Translations under genes and position numbers: made by a program | Shown here: positions 51,021 to 57,220 of the stretch, one piece after another | How positions within the stretch are numbered: position 1 is the stretch's first letter | Layout of the letters: each line of letters starts with the position of its first letter | The notes under the pieces: generated by a model | Databases searched by the model: none | Told to the model about the DNA's origin: nothing | What the model saw: the letters and a program-made list of their open reading frames with translations, nothing else | NCBI GenBank assembly: GCA_963770895.1 | Contig: CAVYRF010000002.1 | Span: forward strand, 64,001 to 128,000 | Length of the DNA stretch: 64,000 bases | Direction: 5' to 3' | Origin: an uncultured Acidobacteriota bacterium | Lineage (GTDB): Bacteria > Acidobacteriota > Thermoanaerobaculia > Multivoradales > UBA5704

Positions 51021-52484
51021 CTACGCCGGCGCTCCCGGCGCCGGCACAGGCGTCGGCGGCAAGGCCGACCCCGCCAGCATTTCGCGCACTCCGGCCACCA
51101 GGTCCGCCCGCGGCACCGCCCGCTGGCCCGGCCGCTCGGCCAGCCACTCCAGGCGAGCGCCGACTTTCTTGGCCCGCTCGCGGCCGGCCTCCATATCCTT
51201 GAGCGTGACGATGCCGTTTTCCTTTTCGGTCGAGCCGTACAACAACACGATCGGCACGCCGGTCGCGTCGCCGTATTTGATCTGCTTGCCGACGCCCTTT
51301 TCGACCCCCAGGTAGAGCTCGGCCGGAATGCCGGCGCGGCGCAGCTCCCACGTCATCGCCACGCACTCCCCTTCGAGCGCCGGATCGATGCGCGCCACCA
51401 GCACCTGCGCCGTCGCCTTGCGCCCGCCCGCCCGCCCCAGGTGCTGCAGCGCCGCCAGCAACCGGTCGACGCCCACCGAAGCCCCGGTCGCAGGCAGCCG
51501 CTCGCCCAGGAAGCGCATCACCAGGTCGTCGTAGCGGCCGCCGCTCGCCACCGATCCGAACTGCGGCGCGTCCAGCAGCACCGCCTCGAACACCGGTCCG
51601 GTGTAGTACGCCAGGCCGCGGGCGATGCTCACGTCCAGCGCCACCTGGTCGCCGCCGTAGCCCAGACCGTCCAGCTGGCCCGAGATCCGCTCCACCTGGT
51701 CGATCTCGGGTCCCGCCGCCGCCTGCGCGGCGAAGAACGCCCGCAGCTGCGCGATCACCTGCCCGCGGTCGCCGCTCTGGATGGCCAGGAACTCCTCGAT
51801 GCGCGCCACCTGCTCCGCCGCCAGACCGACGCCGCGGATGAAGTCCCCGGATTCGTCGTGGTAGCCGGTCGTCAGCTCTTTCTTGACCTTCTGGATGCCG
51901 ATCTTTTCCAGCTTGTCCAGCACCCGCAGCACGTCCGCGCCGCCCGCGACCGCCACACCGATCGACCCCAGCAGCGCGTTGAGGATGCCGCGGCTGGAAT
52001 AGCGCACCCGAAAGGCGCCCACCTGGAGCGCCGTCAGCGTGTCGCACAACCCGGCGATGATCTCGACGTCCGCCAGCTCGGACTCCACCCCCACCGAGTC
52101 GATGTCGAACTGGATGAACTCGCGGTACCGCCCCTTGTCCGGCTTGTCCGCCCGCCACACCGGCGACACCTGGTACCGCCGGAACGGCCGCGGCAGGTCG
52201 TTGTACTGCGCCACCACCCGGGCCAGCGGCACCGTCAGGTCGAACCGCAGCCCCAGCGCCTCCCCCTCGGGACTTGCCACGGTGAAGATCGACTGCTGCG
52301 CCTCCTGCCCCGCCGACCCCGTCAGCACGTCCATGTACTCGATCGCCGGCGTCACCAGCGGCGTGAACCCATACAGCTCGTACACCCCCCGGATCGTATC
52401 GATCAGCCCCTGGCGGGCCAGCATCGCCTCGCTCCGCAAATCGCGCAACCCACGCGACAGCCGCGGCTCAACAGCTCCCTTCAT
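51021..52484 (-). CDS. hisS: Histidine--tRNA ligase, alphaproteobacterial/eukaryote-like type
   Basis: RGLRD, LRFDLTVPLAR, VWRADKPDKGRYREFIQFDID, DESGDF, RGLAYYTG, SGGRYD. Confidence 0.95.
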   Translation of the reverse strand: MKGAVEPRLSRGLRDLRSEAMLARQGLIDTIRGVYELYGFTPLVTPAIEYMDVLTGSAGQEAQQSIFTVASPEGEALGLRFDLTVPLARVVAQYNDLPRPFRRYQVSPVWRADKPDKGRYREFIQFDIDSVGVESELADVEIIAGLCDTLTALQVGAFRVRYSSRGILNALLGSIGVAVAGGADVLRVLDKLEKIGIQKVKKELTTGYHDESGDFIRGVGLAAEQVARIEEFLAIQSGDRGQVIAQLRAFFAAQAAAGPEIDQVERISGQLDGLGYGGDQVALDVSIARGLAYYTGPVFEAVLLDAPQFGSVASGGRYDDLVMRFLGERLPATGASVGVDRLLAALQHLGRAGGRKATAQVLVARIDPALEGECVAMTWELRRAGIPAELYLGVEKGVGKQIKYGDATGVPIVLLYGSTEKENGIVTLKDMEAGRERAKKVGARLEWLAERPGQRAVPRADLVAGVREMLAGSALPPTPVPAPGAPA

Positions 52485-52521
52485 CGCTGATTTTCCTTAC
52501 ACCGCCCCAACCCAACGCGAC

Positions 52522-53536
52522 GGCCCGGCCGCGGGGGGACAACAAGCGGGCGACGAGCCTACAAGACCGCCCCACAACGCGCAAGCAAACCGCCGCGCGC
52601 CCCGGCGAACCTGCGAAAATAGGAGGCAGCAGCGCATCCACCGCCGTCCACCCTCGCCCTTTCCCAGGAGGACCGCCCCATGAGCACGAGCAAAACGTTC
52701 GACCTGGCCGGCATCGTGAAGGCCCTGATCGCCGCGACGGACTGGGTCCACGGAGACCTCCGGGGATGGCAACCTGTCCCGCAGGCGGACAAGACCGACC
52801 GGCAGCTCGAGCTGCTGCGCCGGCTGGAGGCGATCAGCTTCGATCTGCCCCGGATTCCGGAGCTCAAGGCCTGGGCTGCGATGAGCGCCGACGAAATCAA
52901 CGCCATCCTCAAGCGCGAGGGCTTCGAGATCAAGCTCTTGCCGTGGCCGATCGACGGACGGAACTTCGGCGTGGTGGCCATCCTGGACGTCACCGTGGAG
53001 TGGATCGAGGCCGGCGACGGCGCCAAGGAGATCCGCCGCCGAACGGCCGACGGCCAATACGACCACACCACACCCGCCTATCCCGCCTTCGAGCTCTCCG
53101 CCCACCAGAACCGCCTGGAGTGCCTCACCGTGTCCGGGAGCGACCAGCCGCTGGTCCGCATCCCGACCAAGTCCGGTGACGTGGTCTGCATTCACGTAAC
53201 CCCGGACGCGGGACTCGACACCTTCGGCCTGTACGACGCCGTGGCCAGGATCTCGGCGGCAGCCAGGCCGGACCCCGACACCTACGCCAAAGTCCTGGAC
53301 GTGACCATCCCAAAGGTGAAGCTCCGCCAGCAGGTGGACATCTCCTGGATGGAGGGCATGCACATCGGCCGCACCGACCCCCAAGGCGACCCGGACCACT
53401 TCGATCTCCAGCGAGTCCTGCAGGGCCTCGACAACGTGTAGCGCCCGCAGCCGACAAGCGGCCACGAACGGGAGCAAGGCCCGGCCGCGGGGACACGACA
53501 AGCGGGCGGCCAGCCTGCAAGACCGCTCAACAACGC
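52522..53536. repeat. About 59-bp imperfect direct repeat (52522-52580 and 53478-53536) bracketing one gene
   Basis: GGCCCGGCCGCGGGG...ACAAGCGGGCG...AGCCT.CAAGACCGC...ACAACGC in both copies. Confidence 0.85.
52680..53441 (+). CDS. Hypothetical protein, possibly a C-terminally truncated serpin-like protein
   Basis: AGGAGG RBS and coding-like codon use; VTIPKVKLRQQVDISW recalls the serpin V.LPKF motif. Weak assignment. Confidence 0.6.
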   Translation: MSTSKTFDLAGIVKALIAATDWVHGDLRGWQPVPQADKTDRQLELLRRLEAISFDLPRIPELKAWAAMSADEINAILKREGFEIKLLPWPIDGRNFGVVAILDVTVEWIEAGDGAKEIRRRTADGQYDHTTPAYPAFELSAHQNRLECLTVSGSDQPLVRIPTKSGDVVCIHVTPDAGLDTFGLYDAVARISAAARPDPDTYAKVLDVTIPKVKLRQQVDISWMEGMHIGRTDPQGDPDHFDLQRVLQGLDNV

Positions 53537-53618
53537 AACAAGGCGTAAGCAAGCCGCCCGAGCGCCCCAGCCCGCAGCCGTCCAGCCGCGGAGCGCGCTC
53601 GAGCCGAAGCACCGGCGC

Positions 53619-54014
53619 TCAGGGCTGCTCTTCGGCGCCACCCTGCAGCAGGAACTCTCGCAGCGCCACGGCATTGTTGCGCTCCGTGTCGCGCGCCGCG
53701 AACACCAGCGTCAGCGTCCGCCCTGCCGCCGCGGCCCGCAGCTGGGCCAAAGCCGCCCTGGCTTCGTCGTGCGTGCGTAGCTCGTCGAAGTAGCGACGCC
53801 GCATCTCTTCCCACAGCTCCGGCCGATGGTGATACCACTCCCGGAGCGCCGTGCTCGGCGCCAGATCGCGCAGCCACAGATCCAGCCGCGCCGCCTCCTT
53901 GGAAACCCCGCGCGGCCACAGCCGGTCCACCAGCACCCGGCACCCATCCTCGGCCGCCGGCGCCTCATAAGCCCGCTTCAGCCGGATCTCGCGAATCTTG
54001 TGCAGGCGCGCCAT
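53619..54014 (-). CDS. DUF488 (YeaO-like) protein
   Basis: KRAYE...DG.RVLVDRLWPRGVSK, APSTALREWY, NNAVAL. Confidence 0.92.
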   Translation of the reverse strand: MARLHKIREIRLKRAYEAPAAEDGCRVLVDRLWPRGVSKEAARLDLWLRDLAPSTALREWYHHRPELWEEMRRRYFDELRTHDEARAALAQLRAAAAGRTLTLVFAARDTERNNAVALREFLLQGGAEEQP

Positions 54015-54118
54015 AGAACGCTAATTCCTTATGCGAGACGATCGGCGCAAGGTTTGCGCCAGGTCTTTCCACCAATGGTGATCCGACCGCTGCGCTTGGA
54101 GAGCTCCTTGACAGGCCG

Positions 54119-55123
54119 CTAGCTGTTGCGCGCGTCGTGGGAAATAAAGCGATGGTGATAGCCTGACCAATAGGCATCAAAGATTTCAGGGTTTTTCGCT
54201 TTCGATACGATGAAACATGGGCGCGCGCGATTCTCGGGTTGATATCCATTGGGTGTTAGAACCAGAAAAGCCACTCGGTCGTCCTCGGGGTCTACGAATG
54301 TGACCGAGAACGGGACGAAGGTGACTCGCCTGATGGTGAGCTGATCGGGGCCGAAGCCGGCCGCATTGGCCCAGCTATCCAGGGTTTTGAAAAACTGTGT
54401 TGCCACCTTGAGATCCTCTTTGTAGGCACTCTCGCCTGCTACATACGCCCACGTCCTGACCGCGTGCTCATCGGCAAGATTGCATAACATGATATCCACC
54501 CGACGACAACGATCGGGCATCAGGAAGTCGAAAAGAGCGGTCCGCAACTGCTCCTGACGCGCAGGTGTCTCAGTCAGAAAGAAGTGATTCTGCGCAGCGA
54601 CGAAGATATGCCTTCGTGCCCGCGAGAACAAATCAAAGAATGTGTATGGCGTGTCGGCGACTCGCCTGGCAGCAAGCGCCAACGAAGTACGCTCATGATG
54701 ATCTGTTCCAACGAGGTCTTCTGGATGCGCAGCGGACTCGGGAAAACTATTAATCCAACTTGTCAATTTCTTACCGAGCGTATTAGGTAAATCGCTTTTA
54801 TTGTATACGATCGTTCGCTGATCCTTGACATCGAAGAAGAGGTGCGACGGCGACTGTGCCAATGTGATAATCGGCTTCCCCAAGGCTTGAGCGTAGCCGA
54901 CCTCCAATGCCACATTGGGATTCTGCCCGGTTACATCGGCTATGCAGACTGTCGCTTTCCTTACTTCAGCCATCATTTGCTCAGTAATCTGGCCGGCTTT
55001 CGTGATCTCGTCGGCCCAAATACAGTCTGCTTTAGCAACTTTCGCGCGTTTGACAGCCTTTCGGATTGCTTCACGTATTTCTACAAATTCAGACTTGAAG
55101 GGCATTATTACGAAGATGTACAC
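54119..55123 (-). CDS. Low-GC nucleoside-2-deoxyribosyltransferase/TIR-like domain fused to a PLD-like (DUF5919-like) domain
   Basis: FVIMPF...IADVTGQNPNVALEVGYAQALGKP...FDV; GTG start after AGAGGA; markedly AT-richer than the flanks. Confidence 0.72.
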   Translation of the reverse strand: MYIFVIMPFKSEFVEIREAIRKAVKRAKVAKADCIWADEITKAGQITEQMMAEVRKATVCIADVTGQNPNVALEVGYAQALGKPIITLAQSPSHLFFDVKDQRTIVYNKSDLPNTLGKKLTSWINSFPESAAHPEDLVGTDHHERTSLALAARRVADTPYTFFDLFSRARRHIFVAAQNHFFLTETPARQEQLRTALFDFLMPDRCRRVDIMLCNLADEHAVRTWAYVAGESAYKEDLKVATQFFKTLDSWANAAGFGPDQLTIRRVTFVPFSVTFVDPEDDRVAFLVLTPNGYQPENRARPCFIVSKAKNPEIFDAYWSGYHHRFISHDARNS

Positions 55124-55552
55124 GTAGACGGTCCTCTTACATATGATTGAGGTGCGATGCGATTTGGGGTGGGTTTCTAATAGTCCGCCTTGGCCCTCGG
55201 CGTGCTCTCGCACATTAGCATATTTTACCGGAAGCCGTGATCGCGGTTCTCTCGGGGAGGTTGCCTACTCCAGCGAGCGCCGTGCCTCAACCGCCGCCAT
55301 TCCATCGCGCCCATCCAGGGCCACGCCAGGACCCGGCCGCGGGCGGACCAGGACGCGCTTCCGAATTCGCCGAGGTGACCACGCGCCGCCCAAAATGGGG
55401 AAGCCGAAGGTGACCGCCCGGCCCTCAGACCTCCGAAATGGGGAGCCGGCCTACGACCGCAAGCGGAAGCACGTAGAATCCCGAACGAGGATCAAGCCGC
55501 ATCCGCGACTGCTGACCGTCGCACTAAATTATTTTGATTCAGACACTTAGAA

Positions 55553-55627
55553 TGGCACCGGTGGTTGGATTTGAACCAACGACCCCCTGATCCACAGTCA
55601 GGTGCTCTCCCCCTGAGCTACACCGGC
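55553..55627 (-). tRNA. tRNA-His(GUG), non-canonical acceptor stem
   Basis: Full cloverleaf: acceptor GCCGGTG/CACCGGT, D-arm GCTC/GAGC, anticodon arm CCTGA-CTGTGGA-TCAGG, T-arm GTTGG-TTCAAAT-CCAAC, G73, encoded CCA. Confidence 0.96.
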
Positions 55628-55642
55628 GTATGGGAGCGGGGA

Positions 55643-55672
55643 ATCCTACAATAGACGCTCGCCGTCAGTCAA
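55643..55672 (-). promoter_or_regulatory. Putative sigma70 promoter of tRNA-His
   Basis: TTGACT-18 nt-TAGGAT, ending 15 nt upstream of G1. Confidence 0.55.
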
Positions 55673-55720
55673 AGCGCCGCGGCGCCGCTGGAGCAGGCAA
55701 GGGCACTGACAGCAAAGAAC

Positions 55721-57220
55721 TTAGCCGAGCTGTGGCAGAACGGGCAGGCCCAGCAGGCGGCGCGCCAGGGGGAGCGGCAGGGTTTGGCCGGTCATCAGGC
55801 GGAACTGGCCCATGGCCTGGCCCAGGAGGACTTCGCGGCCGTCCACGGTGACGGCGCCGAGCGCCGCGGCGGCCACCAGCAGCGGCGTCTGGTCGGCGCC
55901 GTCCCGGCGATAGACCAGGTCGATGACGACCGTGCCGGGCCGCACGGCGGCGACGTCGAAGGGCAGCTCTTCGCCGCGCTCGCCCCGTCCCAGCGGGGTG
56001 GCGTTGACCAGCAGGTCGAAGTCGCACGGCGCCAACTGCGCCAGCGGCAGGCATTCCAGCCCCAGGTGGGCGGCGGCCTGGGCGCCGCGCTCGGGGTCGC
56101 GGTTGAACAGGGTGACGCTGGCGCCGGCGCGGTGCAGGCCGACGGCCGCGGAACGGCCGCCGCCGCCGGCGCCGATCACCGCGGCGGTGCGGCCGGCGAC
56201 GTCGATGCCGCGCTGGCGCAGCGGCTCGACGACGCCCTCGGGGTCGGTGCATTCGGCTTCCCAGACGCCGGCGCGCAGCACCAGGGTGTTGGCGGCGCCG
56301 ATCAGGCCGGCGAGCGGGCTTTCGGCGCCGGCGACGGCCAGGGCGGCGGCCTTGTGGGGGGCGGTGATCGACAGACCCTGGATGGGCAGCCCCAGGGAGT
56401 CCAGGCCGCCCTCCTCGATCACCTCCAGCCAGAAGTCGCCGAAGGCCGGGGCGTCGAAGCCCAGGTAGAGGGCGGGGATGCCCAGTTCCCGGTAGGCGCC
56501 GTTGTGCAGGCGCGGCGACAGCGAATGGGCGACCGGGTGGCCGGCGACGCCGCAGAGCGTGGCGACCGGCGGCAGCGCCGGCAGGCCGTAGTCTTCGCGC
56601 AGCGAGCGGATGGTGGGCTGCCCCGGCGCGACCGGCGCGTCGCCGGCGGCGCCGTAGACGACCGGCGCGCCCAGCCGTGGCGCCAGCAGGCGCGTCCAGG
56701 CGCCCGACGCCCCGGCGGCGAAGGCGATCACGTCCGTACGCTCCAGGCGCTTGAGCAGGGCGAGCGGCGCCAGGTTTTCGCCCGGTTGCCCGGCGGCCGT
56801 GACCAGCTTGTAGAGCGCCGCGTCGGCCTCCGTCAGGCGGCCCAGGCAGGCCTCCAGGGCGTCCACGTCACCGGCCGGGCCGTGCCACGAAATCACCCGC
56901 CGCTCGGGCGGGATGGCTTCCAGGATCTCGGGCCGCAGGTCGCGCGCGCCCTCCAGGTCGAGGCGGTCGTAGCGCGCCGCGGCGTCGAGCAGGCGGCGCT
57001 TGCGGCGTTCGAGCGAGCCCTCGAAGGCGCCCCATTCCGCGCGGCTGCGCAGGGTGTACAGGAGCTTGCCGGGAAACAGGCGGCGCAGCGGCTCGGGATC
57101 GAGGTCGCCGGCCAGGTCGGCGCGCACCTCCAGCCATTGGACCCCTTCCAGGTCAGCCGCCACCGCGGGGGTGAGCGGCGCGCTCAGCGTGGCGACCAGG
57201 GAAGCCTCGGCGGCCGGCAT
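55721..57220 (-). CDS. aroE: Fused type I 3-dehydroquinate dehydratase and shikimate dehydrogenase
   Basis: EVRAD, ISWH, YKLV, APGQ, then HSLSPRLHN, ITAPHK, GAANT, GAGG, VNATPLG. Confidence 0.88.
   Translation of the reverse strand: MPAAEASLVATLSAPLTPAVAADLEGVQWLEVRADLAGDLDPEPLRRLFPGKLLYTLRSRAEWGAFEGSLERRKRRLLDAAARYDRLDLEGARDLRPEILEAIPPERRVISWHGPAGDVDALEACLGRLTEADAALYKLVTAAGQPGENLAPLALLKRLERTDVIAFAAGASGAWTRLLAPRLGAPVVYGAAGDAPVAPGQPTIRSLREDYGLPALPPVATLCGVAGHPVAHSLSPRLHNGAYRELGIPALYLGFDAPAFGDFWLEVIEEGGLDSLGLPIQGLSITAPHKAAALAVAGAESPLAGLIGAANTLVLRAGVWEAECTDPEGVVEPLRQRGIDVAGRTAAVIGAGGGGRSAAVGLHRAGASVTLFNRDPERGAQAAAHLGLECLPLAQLAPCDFDLLVNATPLGRGERGEELPFDVAAVRPGTVVIDLVYRRDGADQTPLLVAAAALGAVTVDGREVLLGQAMGQFRLMTGQTLPLPLARRLLGLPVLPQLG

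Follow-up and report, generated by a model that had tools for sequence, protein, structure and literature searches.

A tRNA-His gene without G-1, and its cognate-type histidyl-tRNA synthetase, in an uncultured Acidobacteriota bacterium

A 64,000-nucleotide (nt) stretch of DNA from an uncultured Acidobacteriota bacterium (assembly GCA_963770895.1, contig CAVYRF010000002.1, positions 64,001 to 128,000; this whole stretch is hereafter called the window) carries a tRNA-His gene that lacks the guanosine at position -1 (G-1). Our analysis indicates that this gene is very probably the functional and sole tRNA-His of a G-1-less (deltaG-1) tRNA-His/histidyl-tRNA synthetase (HisRS) system like that of Caulobacter and the Rhizobiales. 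By common teaching, the G-1 of tRNA-His ranks among the most universal identity marks, and to our knowledge the textbooks confine the G-1-less system to the alpha-proteobacteria. As judged from gene and protein sequences, the same enzyme clade and the same tRNA type are present in Acidobacteriota, as well as in loci whose titles read Planctomycetota, Nitrospirota, Zixibacteria, WOR-3, Coatesbacteria and Ignavibacteriales, with the two genes usually linked.

The alphaproteobacterial group is characterized, in the passages of Yuan 2011 (PMC3064791) that define it, by the lack of G-1, a G1-U72 pair, A73 and a D-loop of 9 nt. The trait was called unique and probably of single origin in the part of Amrine 2014 (PMC3937112) devoted to it, and only the alpha-proteobacteria are named in the corresponding passage of a 2023 review of identity elements (PMC9976931). 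A full-text literature search returned, in the excerpts retrieved, no G-1-less bacterial tRNA-His outside the alpha-proteobacteria and their phages.

ARAGORN called a tRNA-His(gtg) on the minus strand, the single tRNA call in the window, and Rfam RF00005 matched positions 55556-55627 with 69.2 bits (E 5.2e-13); the coordinates of all features are collected in Table 1. The key bases are C-1 at 55628, G1 at 55627, U72 at 55557 and G73 at 55556, followed by a genome-encoded CCA (55555-55553). The acceptor stem has 7 pairs, namely G1.U72, C2-G71, C3-G70, G4-C69, G5-C68, U6-A67 and G7-C66; because U8 and A9 set the register, the G at 55627 must be counted as position 1 instead of -1. The anticodon loop reads C-U-GUG-G-A, giving G37 at 55592, and the D-loop (AGGGGGA) is 7 nt long and has no U20a. 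All four features named in a preliminary description of this DNA, which left the strand unstated, are thus present on the minus strand: C-1, G1.U72, G73 and G37. A sigma-70-like match about 15 nt upstream of G1 (1 site, where 50 shuffles gave 0.0 on average) would provide the gene with a promoter of its own and a short 5' leader. Both ends of the gene are covered by contigs of other public runs, X3 at 55450-55576 and X4 at 55615-55750 with 0 differences each, and X2 at 55565-55750 with 1 difference, at 55681, outside the tRNA gene. These contigs, all of which agree inside the gene, show no sign of the assembly error at 55556 or 55628 that the preliminary description had named as a possible refutation; as one run may be the source sample, they give weak independent support.

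Table 1. Features of the tRNA-His/hisS locus, in window coordinates
Feature	Position	Strand	Basis or remark
tRNA-His(GUG) gene, 75 nt including the encoded CCA	55553..55627	-	ARAGORN; Rfam RF00005; model R1
Anticodon GUG (positions 34-36; starts at gene position 33 per ARAGORN)	55593..55595	-	sequence and ARAGORN
Leader base -1, C, complementary to G73	55628..55628	-	sequence
Sigma-70-like promoter match, TTGACT, 18-nt spacer, TAGGAT	55643..55672	-	consensus match only
hisS, P0001, 487 aa, deltaG-1-type HisRS	51021..52484	-	TIGR00442, motifs, tree
Three open reading frames (ORFs) between tRNA-His and hisS	52497..55213	-	listed singly below
ORF without Pfam match	52497-53612	-	Pfam
ORF, DUF488	53619-54014	-	Pfam
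ORF, weak Nuc_deoxyrib_tr (nucleoside 2-deoxyribosyltransferase) match	54119-55213	-	Pfam
Low-GC patch, 52-56% versus about 70%	54000..55400	.	directly 3' of the tRNA gene; covers ORF 54119-55213

The window belongs to a genome (G000) of 8.16 Mb and 70.7% G+C that is assembled in 3 contigs and is 94.95% complete by marker genes. The preliminary description had proposed to search the whole genome for other tRNA-His genes, and this was done using ARAGORN and two covariance models, R1 built from 35 distinct deltaG-1 tRNA-His genes and R2 from 11 canonical G-1:C73 tRNA-His genes of the window's class; typing of tRNAs by BLAST was dropped in favor of these models after canonical genes had been missed and other tRNAs picked in 9 of 30 loci. 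ARAGORN made two His calls. With R1 the window gene was the best match at 87.9 bits, other tRNAs reached at most 72.3 bits and the second His call scored 47.1 bits. With R2 the window gene scored 68.8 bits, compared with 80-102 bits for verified canonical genes, and no canonical tRNA-His was found elsewhere in G000, the top R2 match (77 bits) having the coordinates of the tRNA-Asp called by ARAGORN. R2 scores of 80-84 bits are ambiguous, as verified canonical tRNA-His genes (80.5-83.7) overlap with a tRNA-Asp (81.6), and typing in this range needs sequences; the 75-nt R2 matches of 80.6-81.6 bits in 32 deltaG-1 genomes fall within it and are known by score only. Judged by these searches, the window gene is the only credible tRNA-His of the genome and, as a point for annotation, very probably a working tRNA-His and not a pseudogene.

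The second His call (positions 501-574 of locus L001, corresponding to C2:4578857-4578930) was rejected as a tRNA-His gene, for it has C33, no CCA, and an anticodon stem whose first pairs are G.A and A.G. It stands in tandem with another tRNA-like sequence and the two share identical T-arms (L001:501-657, or C2:4578857-4579014). The first of the two has an 8-bp acceptor stem, C-1:G73-like ends and GTG in an aberrant anticodon arm, and the second a GAU anticodon loop and a truncated acceptor stem; no further copies of the pair were found in G000. The arrangement resembles the "polycistrons of irregular tRNAs" from acidobacterial metagenomes that are mentioned in part of Mukai 2017 (PMC5389517).

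The hisS gene lies about 3.07 kb downstream of the tRNA gene on the same strand, and its product, P0001, was the sole match above the cut-off when G000 was searched with TIGR00442 (about 338.7-338.8 bits). When compared with individual HisRS chains, P0001 scored 189-201 bits against those of Nostoc and human and 86-89 bits against those of E. coli and Thermus. P0001 and 36 enzymes that accompany deltaG-1 tRNAs were then aligned with 9 canonical enzymes of the same class. The canonical motif-2 loop, FRYE-x-x-Q-x-GR, had its Gln in 9/9 sequences, whereas the Gln was found in 0/37 deltaG-1 enzymes: 18 have Asp, 16 have Gly (GPGR) and 3 have Lys together with a 2-residue insert. In P0001 the loop reads RADKP-DKGRYREF, with Asp where the canonical Gln stands. 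The segment that precedes LRPE in canonical enzymes is basic and Gly-containing, (K/R)(G/K)(G/E)R, and its counterpart in deltaG-1 enzymes is PE(G/E/K)E, followed by LRFDLT. P0001 has P-E-G-E at the putative G-1 pocket, so that one Gly is left (Glu-Gly), a correspondence drawn by sequence alignment only. In the portion of Tian 2015 (PMC4357726) that concerns these contacts, Gln117, Arg115 and the Gly72'Gly73' pocket contact the G-1:C73 end, and two Asp replace Gly-Gly in the Caulobacter HisRS.

Two further observations concern the enzymes of this type. A second deltaG-1-type HisRS copy, 58% identical to P0001 and additional to the tRNA-adjacent one, was seen in two genomes of the window's class and of genus g64 (G162:C5:17607-19010 and G107:C44:38446-39825). 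In four loci from Phycisphaerae/Planctomycetes metagenome-assembled genomes (MAGs; L051, L054, L056 and L057), the G-1-less tRNA-His has A73 and a G1:C72 pair in place of G1.U72, and the HisRS of the three aligned (L051, L054 and L057) has the 2-residue insert in the motif-2 loop, CDNPYEKRGR. Position 72 and the motif-2 loop therefore look as though they co-vary; position 72 is the major acceptor determinant in Caulobacter.

The features of the enzyme bear on whether the mature tRNA is G-1-less at all, as a -1 residue could be added post-transcriptionally by a Thg1-like 3'-5' polymerase. Bacterial Thg1-like proteins do exist and act in a templated way, according to the section of PMC3061083 on this activity. 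We consider such an addition very improbable here, given that a search for Thg1 (PF04446) gave no match in G000 while the control genome, Methanosarcina acetivorans, was positive, and that the HisRS is without the features that read G-1.

To define the distribution of the pair we used 151 genomes sampled evenly across the window's class; the counts include genomes flagged as unpublished (G165, G044 and G135 in this sample, G182 and G222 in the alphaproteobacterial-class sample described below). A P0001-type HisRS (E <= 1e-190, 64-76% identity) was present in 32 of the 151, and the same 32 were the only genomes with an R1 match of at least 87.8 bits. From these, 31 tRNA-His genes were fetched in 30 loci, and all of them have G1.U72 with A73 or G73. 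Among the other 119 genomes, 8 encode only a 29-32% identical enzyme and 111 gave no match at 1e-30; the 29 tRNA-His genes fetched from the remaining families of the class all have G-1, G1:C72 and C73. At the level of the phylum, 13 of 301 sampled genomes have a P0001-type enzyme (E <= 1e-100). Within the window's family and genus, four genomes (G003, G004, G005 and G007) carry the same G73 tRNA-His gene, and three genomes of the genus (G001, G006 and G008) have a P0001-type enzyme that is 78-80% identical, with no assembled deltaG-1 tRNA. The window tRNA-His is 81-88% identical in relatives, and its cloverleaf is perfect.

Among named hisS loci, the closest (71-76% identity) are titled Thermoanaerobaculia, Acidobacteriota or Holophagales bacterium, followed by Phycisphaerae and Planctomycetes (57-62%) and, at 43-53%, by Acidobacteriota, WOR-3, Coatesbacteria, Zixibacteria, Nitrospirota, Ignavibacteriales, Cloacimonadota and others. 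In 25 of the 47 named loci a tRNA-His precedes hisS on the same strand at a distance of about 60 nt to 2.4 kb, and the combination of G-1 with C73 is absent from all 25 of these hisS-linked genes. The suggestion of the preliminary description that this is a G-1-less tRNA-His outside the Alphaproteobacteria is supported by a sole gene, a deltaG-1 HisRS, the lack of a Thg1 match and the sharing of the trait by relatives; an alphaproteobacterial host, which it had named as a possible refutation, does not agree with the titles of the closest hisS loci. The case is not an isolated one, the same pair being found in loci titled as several phyla.

Further comparison within the class revealed what has become of the canonical pair. 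A P0001-type enzyme is missing from two genomes of the window's genus, G002 and G009 (94% complete), which instead carry a canonical-type hisS and a canonical tRNA-His; their TIGR00442 scores are 456 and 472 bits, versus 337 bits for G003. The single-contig genome G016 also has a canonical-type hisS (484 bits) and a canonical tRNA-His with no P0001-type enzyme, and a canonical tRNA-His without a P0001-type enzyme was found in G017, G019 and G022. In canonical relatives the tRNA-His gene lies inside a cluster, Pro(TGG)-Arg(TCT)-His-Arg(CCG). The same cluster is present in G000 at C2:2223834-2224140 with nearly identical flanking tRNAs, and the His gene appears as a clean alignment gap, with 23 nt between the two Arg genes; on this alignment, the canonical tRNA-His is cleanly deleted from the cluster. 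Because the ancestral His site is empty and there is no canonical hisS, we infer that the lineage lost both canonical genes and uses the deltaG-1 pair.

These results also speak to the idea that the window gene is a relic or an accessory gene and that histidine is decoded by a canonical tRNA-His missing from the assembly. The genome is in 3 contigs and short of complete, and tRNAs can be missing from assemblies, as in the three genomes of the genus where the enzyme is present and the deltaG-1 tRNA is not assembled. However, the assembly contains the ancestral location of the canonical gene, with no gene in it, and no canonical-type hisS that could charge such a tRNA; the window gene for its part has a perfect cloverleaf, is conserved in relatives at 81-88% identity and co-varies with the enzyme in 32/32 genomes. 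We regard this explanation as the least credible of those considered, with hardly any probability left to it.

The relationship of P0001 to the alphaproteobacterial enzymes was examined in a tree of 68 HisRS rows (a quick search in IQ-TREE under LG+C20, with five canonical enzymes as the root), whose scope is bacterial enzymes and so does not extend to an older claim of a eukaryotic origin. The alphaproteobacterial-class sample was centered on G182, the genome of a locus titled Pelagibacterales, and its rows were assigned to the alphaproteobacteria from this one record title and their motifs. A HisRS 45-48% identical to the G182 enzyme was found in 8 of the 80 other genomes of that sample; all eight enzymes have the GPGR loop and a DDD or DDE segment, and in one of the eight a G-1-less tRNA-His adjoins hisS (L248). 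When the Pelagibacterales HisRS was used as a probe of named genomes, the same multi-phylum set was recovered and no further alphaproteobacteria. A MAG titled Rhizobium (L231/G181; 1.4 Mb) was left out of the references, as it has a canonical-type hisS (458 bits). All 45 deltaG-1 HisRS form one clade, with a Shimodaira-Hasegawa-like approximate likelihood ratio test (SH-aLRT) support of 98, and its sister group is made up of Gln-bearing enzymes that likewise come from the alphaproteobacterial-class sample. Included in the clade are 9 alphaproteobacterial-class rows with the published hallmarks (GPGR loop, DDD segment); the alphaproteobacterial-class deltaG-1 rows fall in a subclade (support 99) together with two rows from other phyla, and P0001 falls in a separate subclade of 26 rows from Acidobacteriota and Planctomycetota (support 100).

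The discriminator base was assessed in a collection of 94 distinct tRNA-His genes, of which 26 are canonical and 68 non-canonical. The latter have G1.U72 in 60 cases and G1:C72 in 8, and position 73 is A in 55, G in 13 and C in none. The genes with G73 come from five genera of the window's family and, in one case, from a WOR-3 locus. Their rows on the HisRS tree comprise a group of 7 (support 84), one row placed among A73 rows and the WOR-3 row, so that G73 arose at least twice. The two bases alternate among close relatives, and within the class no column of the HisRS alignment distinguishes the 8 rows with G73 from the 12 with A73. For the Caulobacter enzyme, the assays cited from Yuan 2011 (PMC3064791) list losses of 91-fold for U72C, 3-fold for A73C, 5-fold for an added G-1 and 91- to 1000-fold for anticodon mutants. 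The lack of a tracking column and the 3-fold effect of A73C suggest that a purine at position 73 is a weak identity element here. The preliminary description had envisaged a further discriminator and, with it, a new identity set. A further discriminator does exist, in that G73 replaces A73 as a lineage variant in 13 of the 68 non-canonical genes; as a new major identity element G73 probably does not qualify, considering the small A73C effect in the assayed enzyme and the indifference of the HisRS columns to G73 or A73.

As the other option, the preliminary description had proposed an inverted C-1:G73 extra pair. On this account RNase P would cut between -2 and -1, the leader C would be kept, and the resulting 8-bp stem would serve as the identity mark. 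C-1 is indeed complementary to G73, and the 13 distinct G73 tRNA-His genes have C at -1 in 10 cases (G in 2 and T in 1). Moreover, a stable G-C pair at -1:73 is said to favor aberrant cutting of E. coli tRNA-His by RNase P, in the passages on processing of Yuan 2011 (PMC3064791) and of an Aquifex RNase P paper. Against this, the tRNA-His is not singled out among the tRNAs of its own genome. C-1 occurs in 15 of the 42 CCA-encoding tRNAs of G000 and in 8 of the 11 that have G73 (Trp, Asp, Sec, Gln, three Ser and His). The -1 and 73 bases are pairable in 27 of the 42, compared with 16.4 expected, a value that 0 of 20,000 shuffles reached; leaving out His and Sec the count is 25 of 40 versus 15.4 (p = 0.0001), and all 7 U73 tRNAs are pairable. 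The pair is not conserved either, as evidenced by the two deltaG-1 G73 relatives with G-1, the one with T-1, and an unpairable -1 base in 18 of the 55 A73 relatives (G in 11, C in 6 and A in 1). Finally, the putative G-1 pocket region of P0001 is acidic and not Gly-Gly, and in Caulobacter the addition of G-1 lowered charging, as noted above from the part of PMC3064791 that reports these assays. The extra pair is accordingly not supported, and we hold it to be improbable, though somewhat less so than the two alternatives discussed earlier.

Two side observations on position -1 may be recorded. Pairs at -1:73 are thought to disturb the choice of the RNase P site, yet they are commoner than chance in the tRNAs of G000. 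In seven loci a G stands at -1 despite G1.U72 and A73 (L017, L019, L022, L024 and L011, of the same family and genera g5-g7, as well as L268 and L248), which on paper is the eukaryote-like G-1/A73 arrangement.

Taken together, a deltaG-1 system would operate in this organism as follows. Transcription of the tRNA-His would start at a promoter belonging to the gene itself and yield a short leader, and RNase P, whose bacterial type A RNA was identified in G000 (272 bits), would cleave at the ordinary +1 site, so that the mature tRNA would begin at G1 and its acceptor stem would be 7 bp long. Charging would fall to the HisRS whose gene lies 3 kb downstream and which has lost the features that read G-1:C73. 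By analogy with the Caulobacter enzyme, P0001 would read the anticodon, GUG, and the wobble pair G1.U72, and the discriminator, G here and A in most relatives, would be a minor element.

Several points weigh against assigning the window pair to this system. Watson-Crick pairing of C-1 with G73 could move the RNase P cut to the -2/-1 junction, and the runs that cover the locus include none listed as RNA. At 94.95% completeness a second tRNA-His may lie in unassembled sequence. The tree came from a quick search, and long branches and uneven composition were flagged by the tool. There are also departures from the pair of Caulobacter crescentus, Rhizobiales, Rhodobacterales and most SAR11 (the RRCH group): the window tRNA has G73 and not A73, and a D-loop of 7 nt without U20a in place of one of 9 nt, although other families of the window's class do have the 9-nt D-loop in their tRNA-His. 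P0001 has Asp at the position of the lost Gln, where RRCH enzymes have the "Gly123" said to be unique to them and where all 8 alphaproteobacterial-class enzymes related to that of G182 have Gly, and its pocket segment is Glu-Gly and not Asp-Asp, meaning that only one pocket Gly is replaced. The host is a member of the Acidobacteriota, and P0001 shares its subclade with Planctomycetota enzymes.

The likenesses to the RRCH pair are nonetheless extensive. They comprise the lack of an encoded G-1:C73, the G1.U72 and C3-G70 pairs, the GUG anticodon and G37 on the side of the tRNA, and, on the side of the protein, a single HisRS without the motif-2 Gln that belongs to the one clade with SH-aLRT 98, in a genome without Thg1; in at least one alphaproteobacterial-class genome (L248) the tRNA gene adjoins hisS as well. 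With the canonical pair of E. coli and T. thermophilus the window pair has in common the GUG anticodon, an ordinary cloverleaf, an encoded CCA and a class IIa HisRS matched by TIGR00442. It differs from that pair in having C-1 rather than G, U72 rather than C and G73 rather than C, and a HisRS devoid of the Gln and, as aligned, of the Gly-Gly.

Systems with neither G-1 nor Thg1 are also described for protists (Acanthamoeba and Trypanosoma) in parts of PMC3561963 and PMC4338351, and for C. elegans mitochondria in a passage of PMC9976931; in these the anticodon is reported to take over as the main identity element, and they belong to eukaryotic lineages. The (8/4) tRNA-His of alphaproteobacterial phages, as presented in part of Mukai 2017 (PMC5389517), resembles the window gene in being G-1-less and having a discriminator other than C, there A73 or U73, which indicates that position 73 can vary within the G-1-less kind. 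It differs in its 8/4 acceptor/T-arm and in being phage-borne, the window gene being of the standard 7/5 form and chromosomal.

In most relatives the tRNA-His gene lies 14-300 nt upstream of hisS, and in the window three ORFs intervene (Table 1). The low-GC patch next to the tRNA gene is probably acquired DNA, and its insertion has possibly split the tRNA-hisS pair. No att-like repeat was found, as the 20-nt stretch at the 3' end of the tRNA occurs only once in the window. Elsewhere in G000 there are isolated tRNA 3' halves ending in CCA that are tRNA-Thr(CGU)-, tRNA-Arg(ACG)- and tRNA-Phe(GAA)-like (C2:2957862-2957927, C2:1987234-1987301, C2:5219962-5220030 and C1:1439207-1439259); these look like attachment-site duplicates from elements integrated at tRNA genes.

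The foregoing leads us to propose, with belief and doubt evenly balanced, that the deltaG-1 tRNA-His and hisS constitute a self-sufficient two-gene module which is orthogonal to the canonical pair and has repeatedly displaced it, even within one genus. Displacement would proceed either by lateral transfer of a linked cassette or through a transient two-pair state followed by loss of one pair, and position 73 would drift freely between A and G after the reading of G-1:C73 had gone. Species of the same genus that differ in their system make the replacement of an essential identity rule testable, and the natural G73 and C72 variants offer material for mapping what the deltaG-1 class of HisRS reads. 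Candidate orthogonal HisRS/tRNA pairs are likewise added beyond the one from Caulobacter. If the proposal is true, histidine identity would be polymorphic and swappable across phyla, and not the outcome of a single alphaproteobacterial event.

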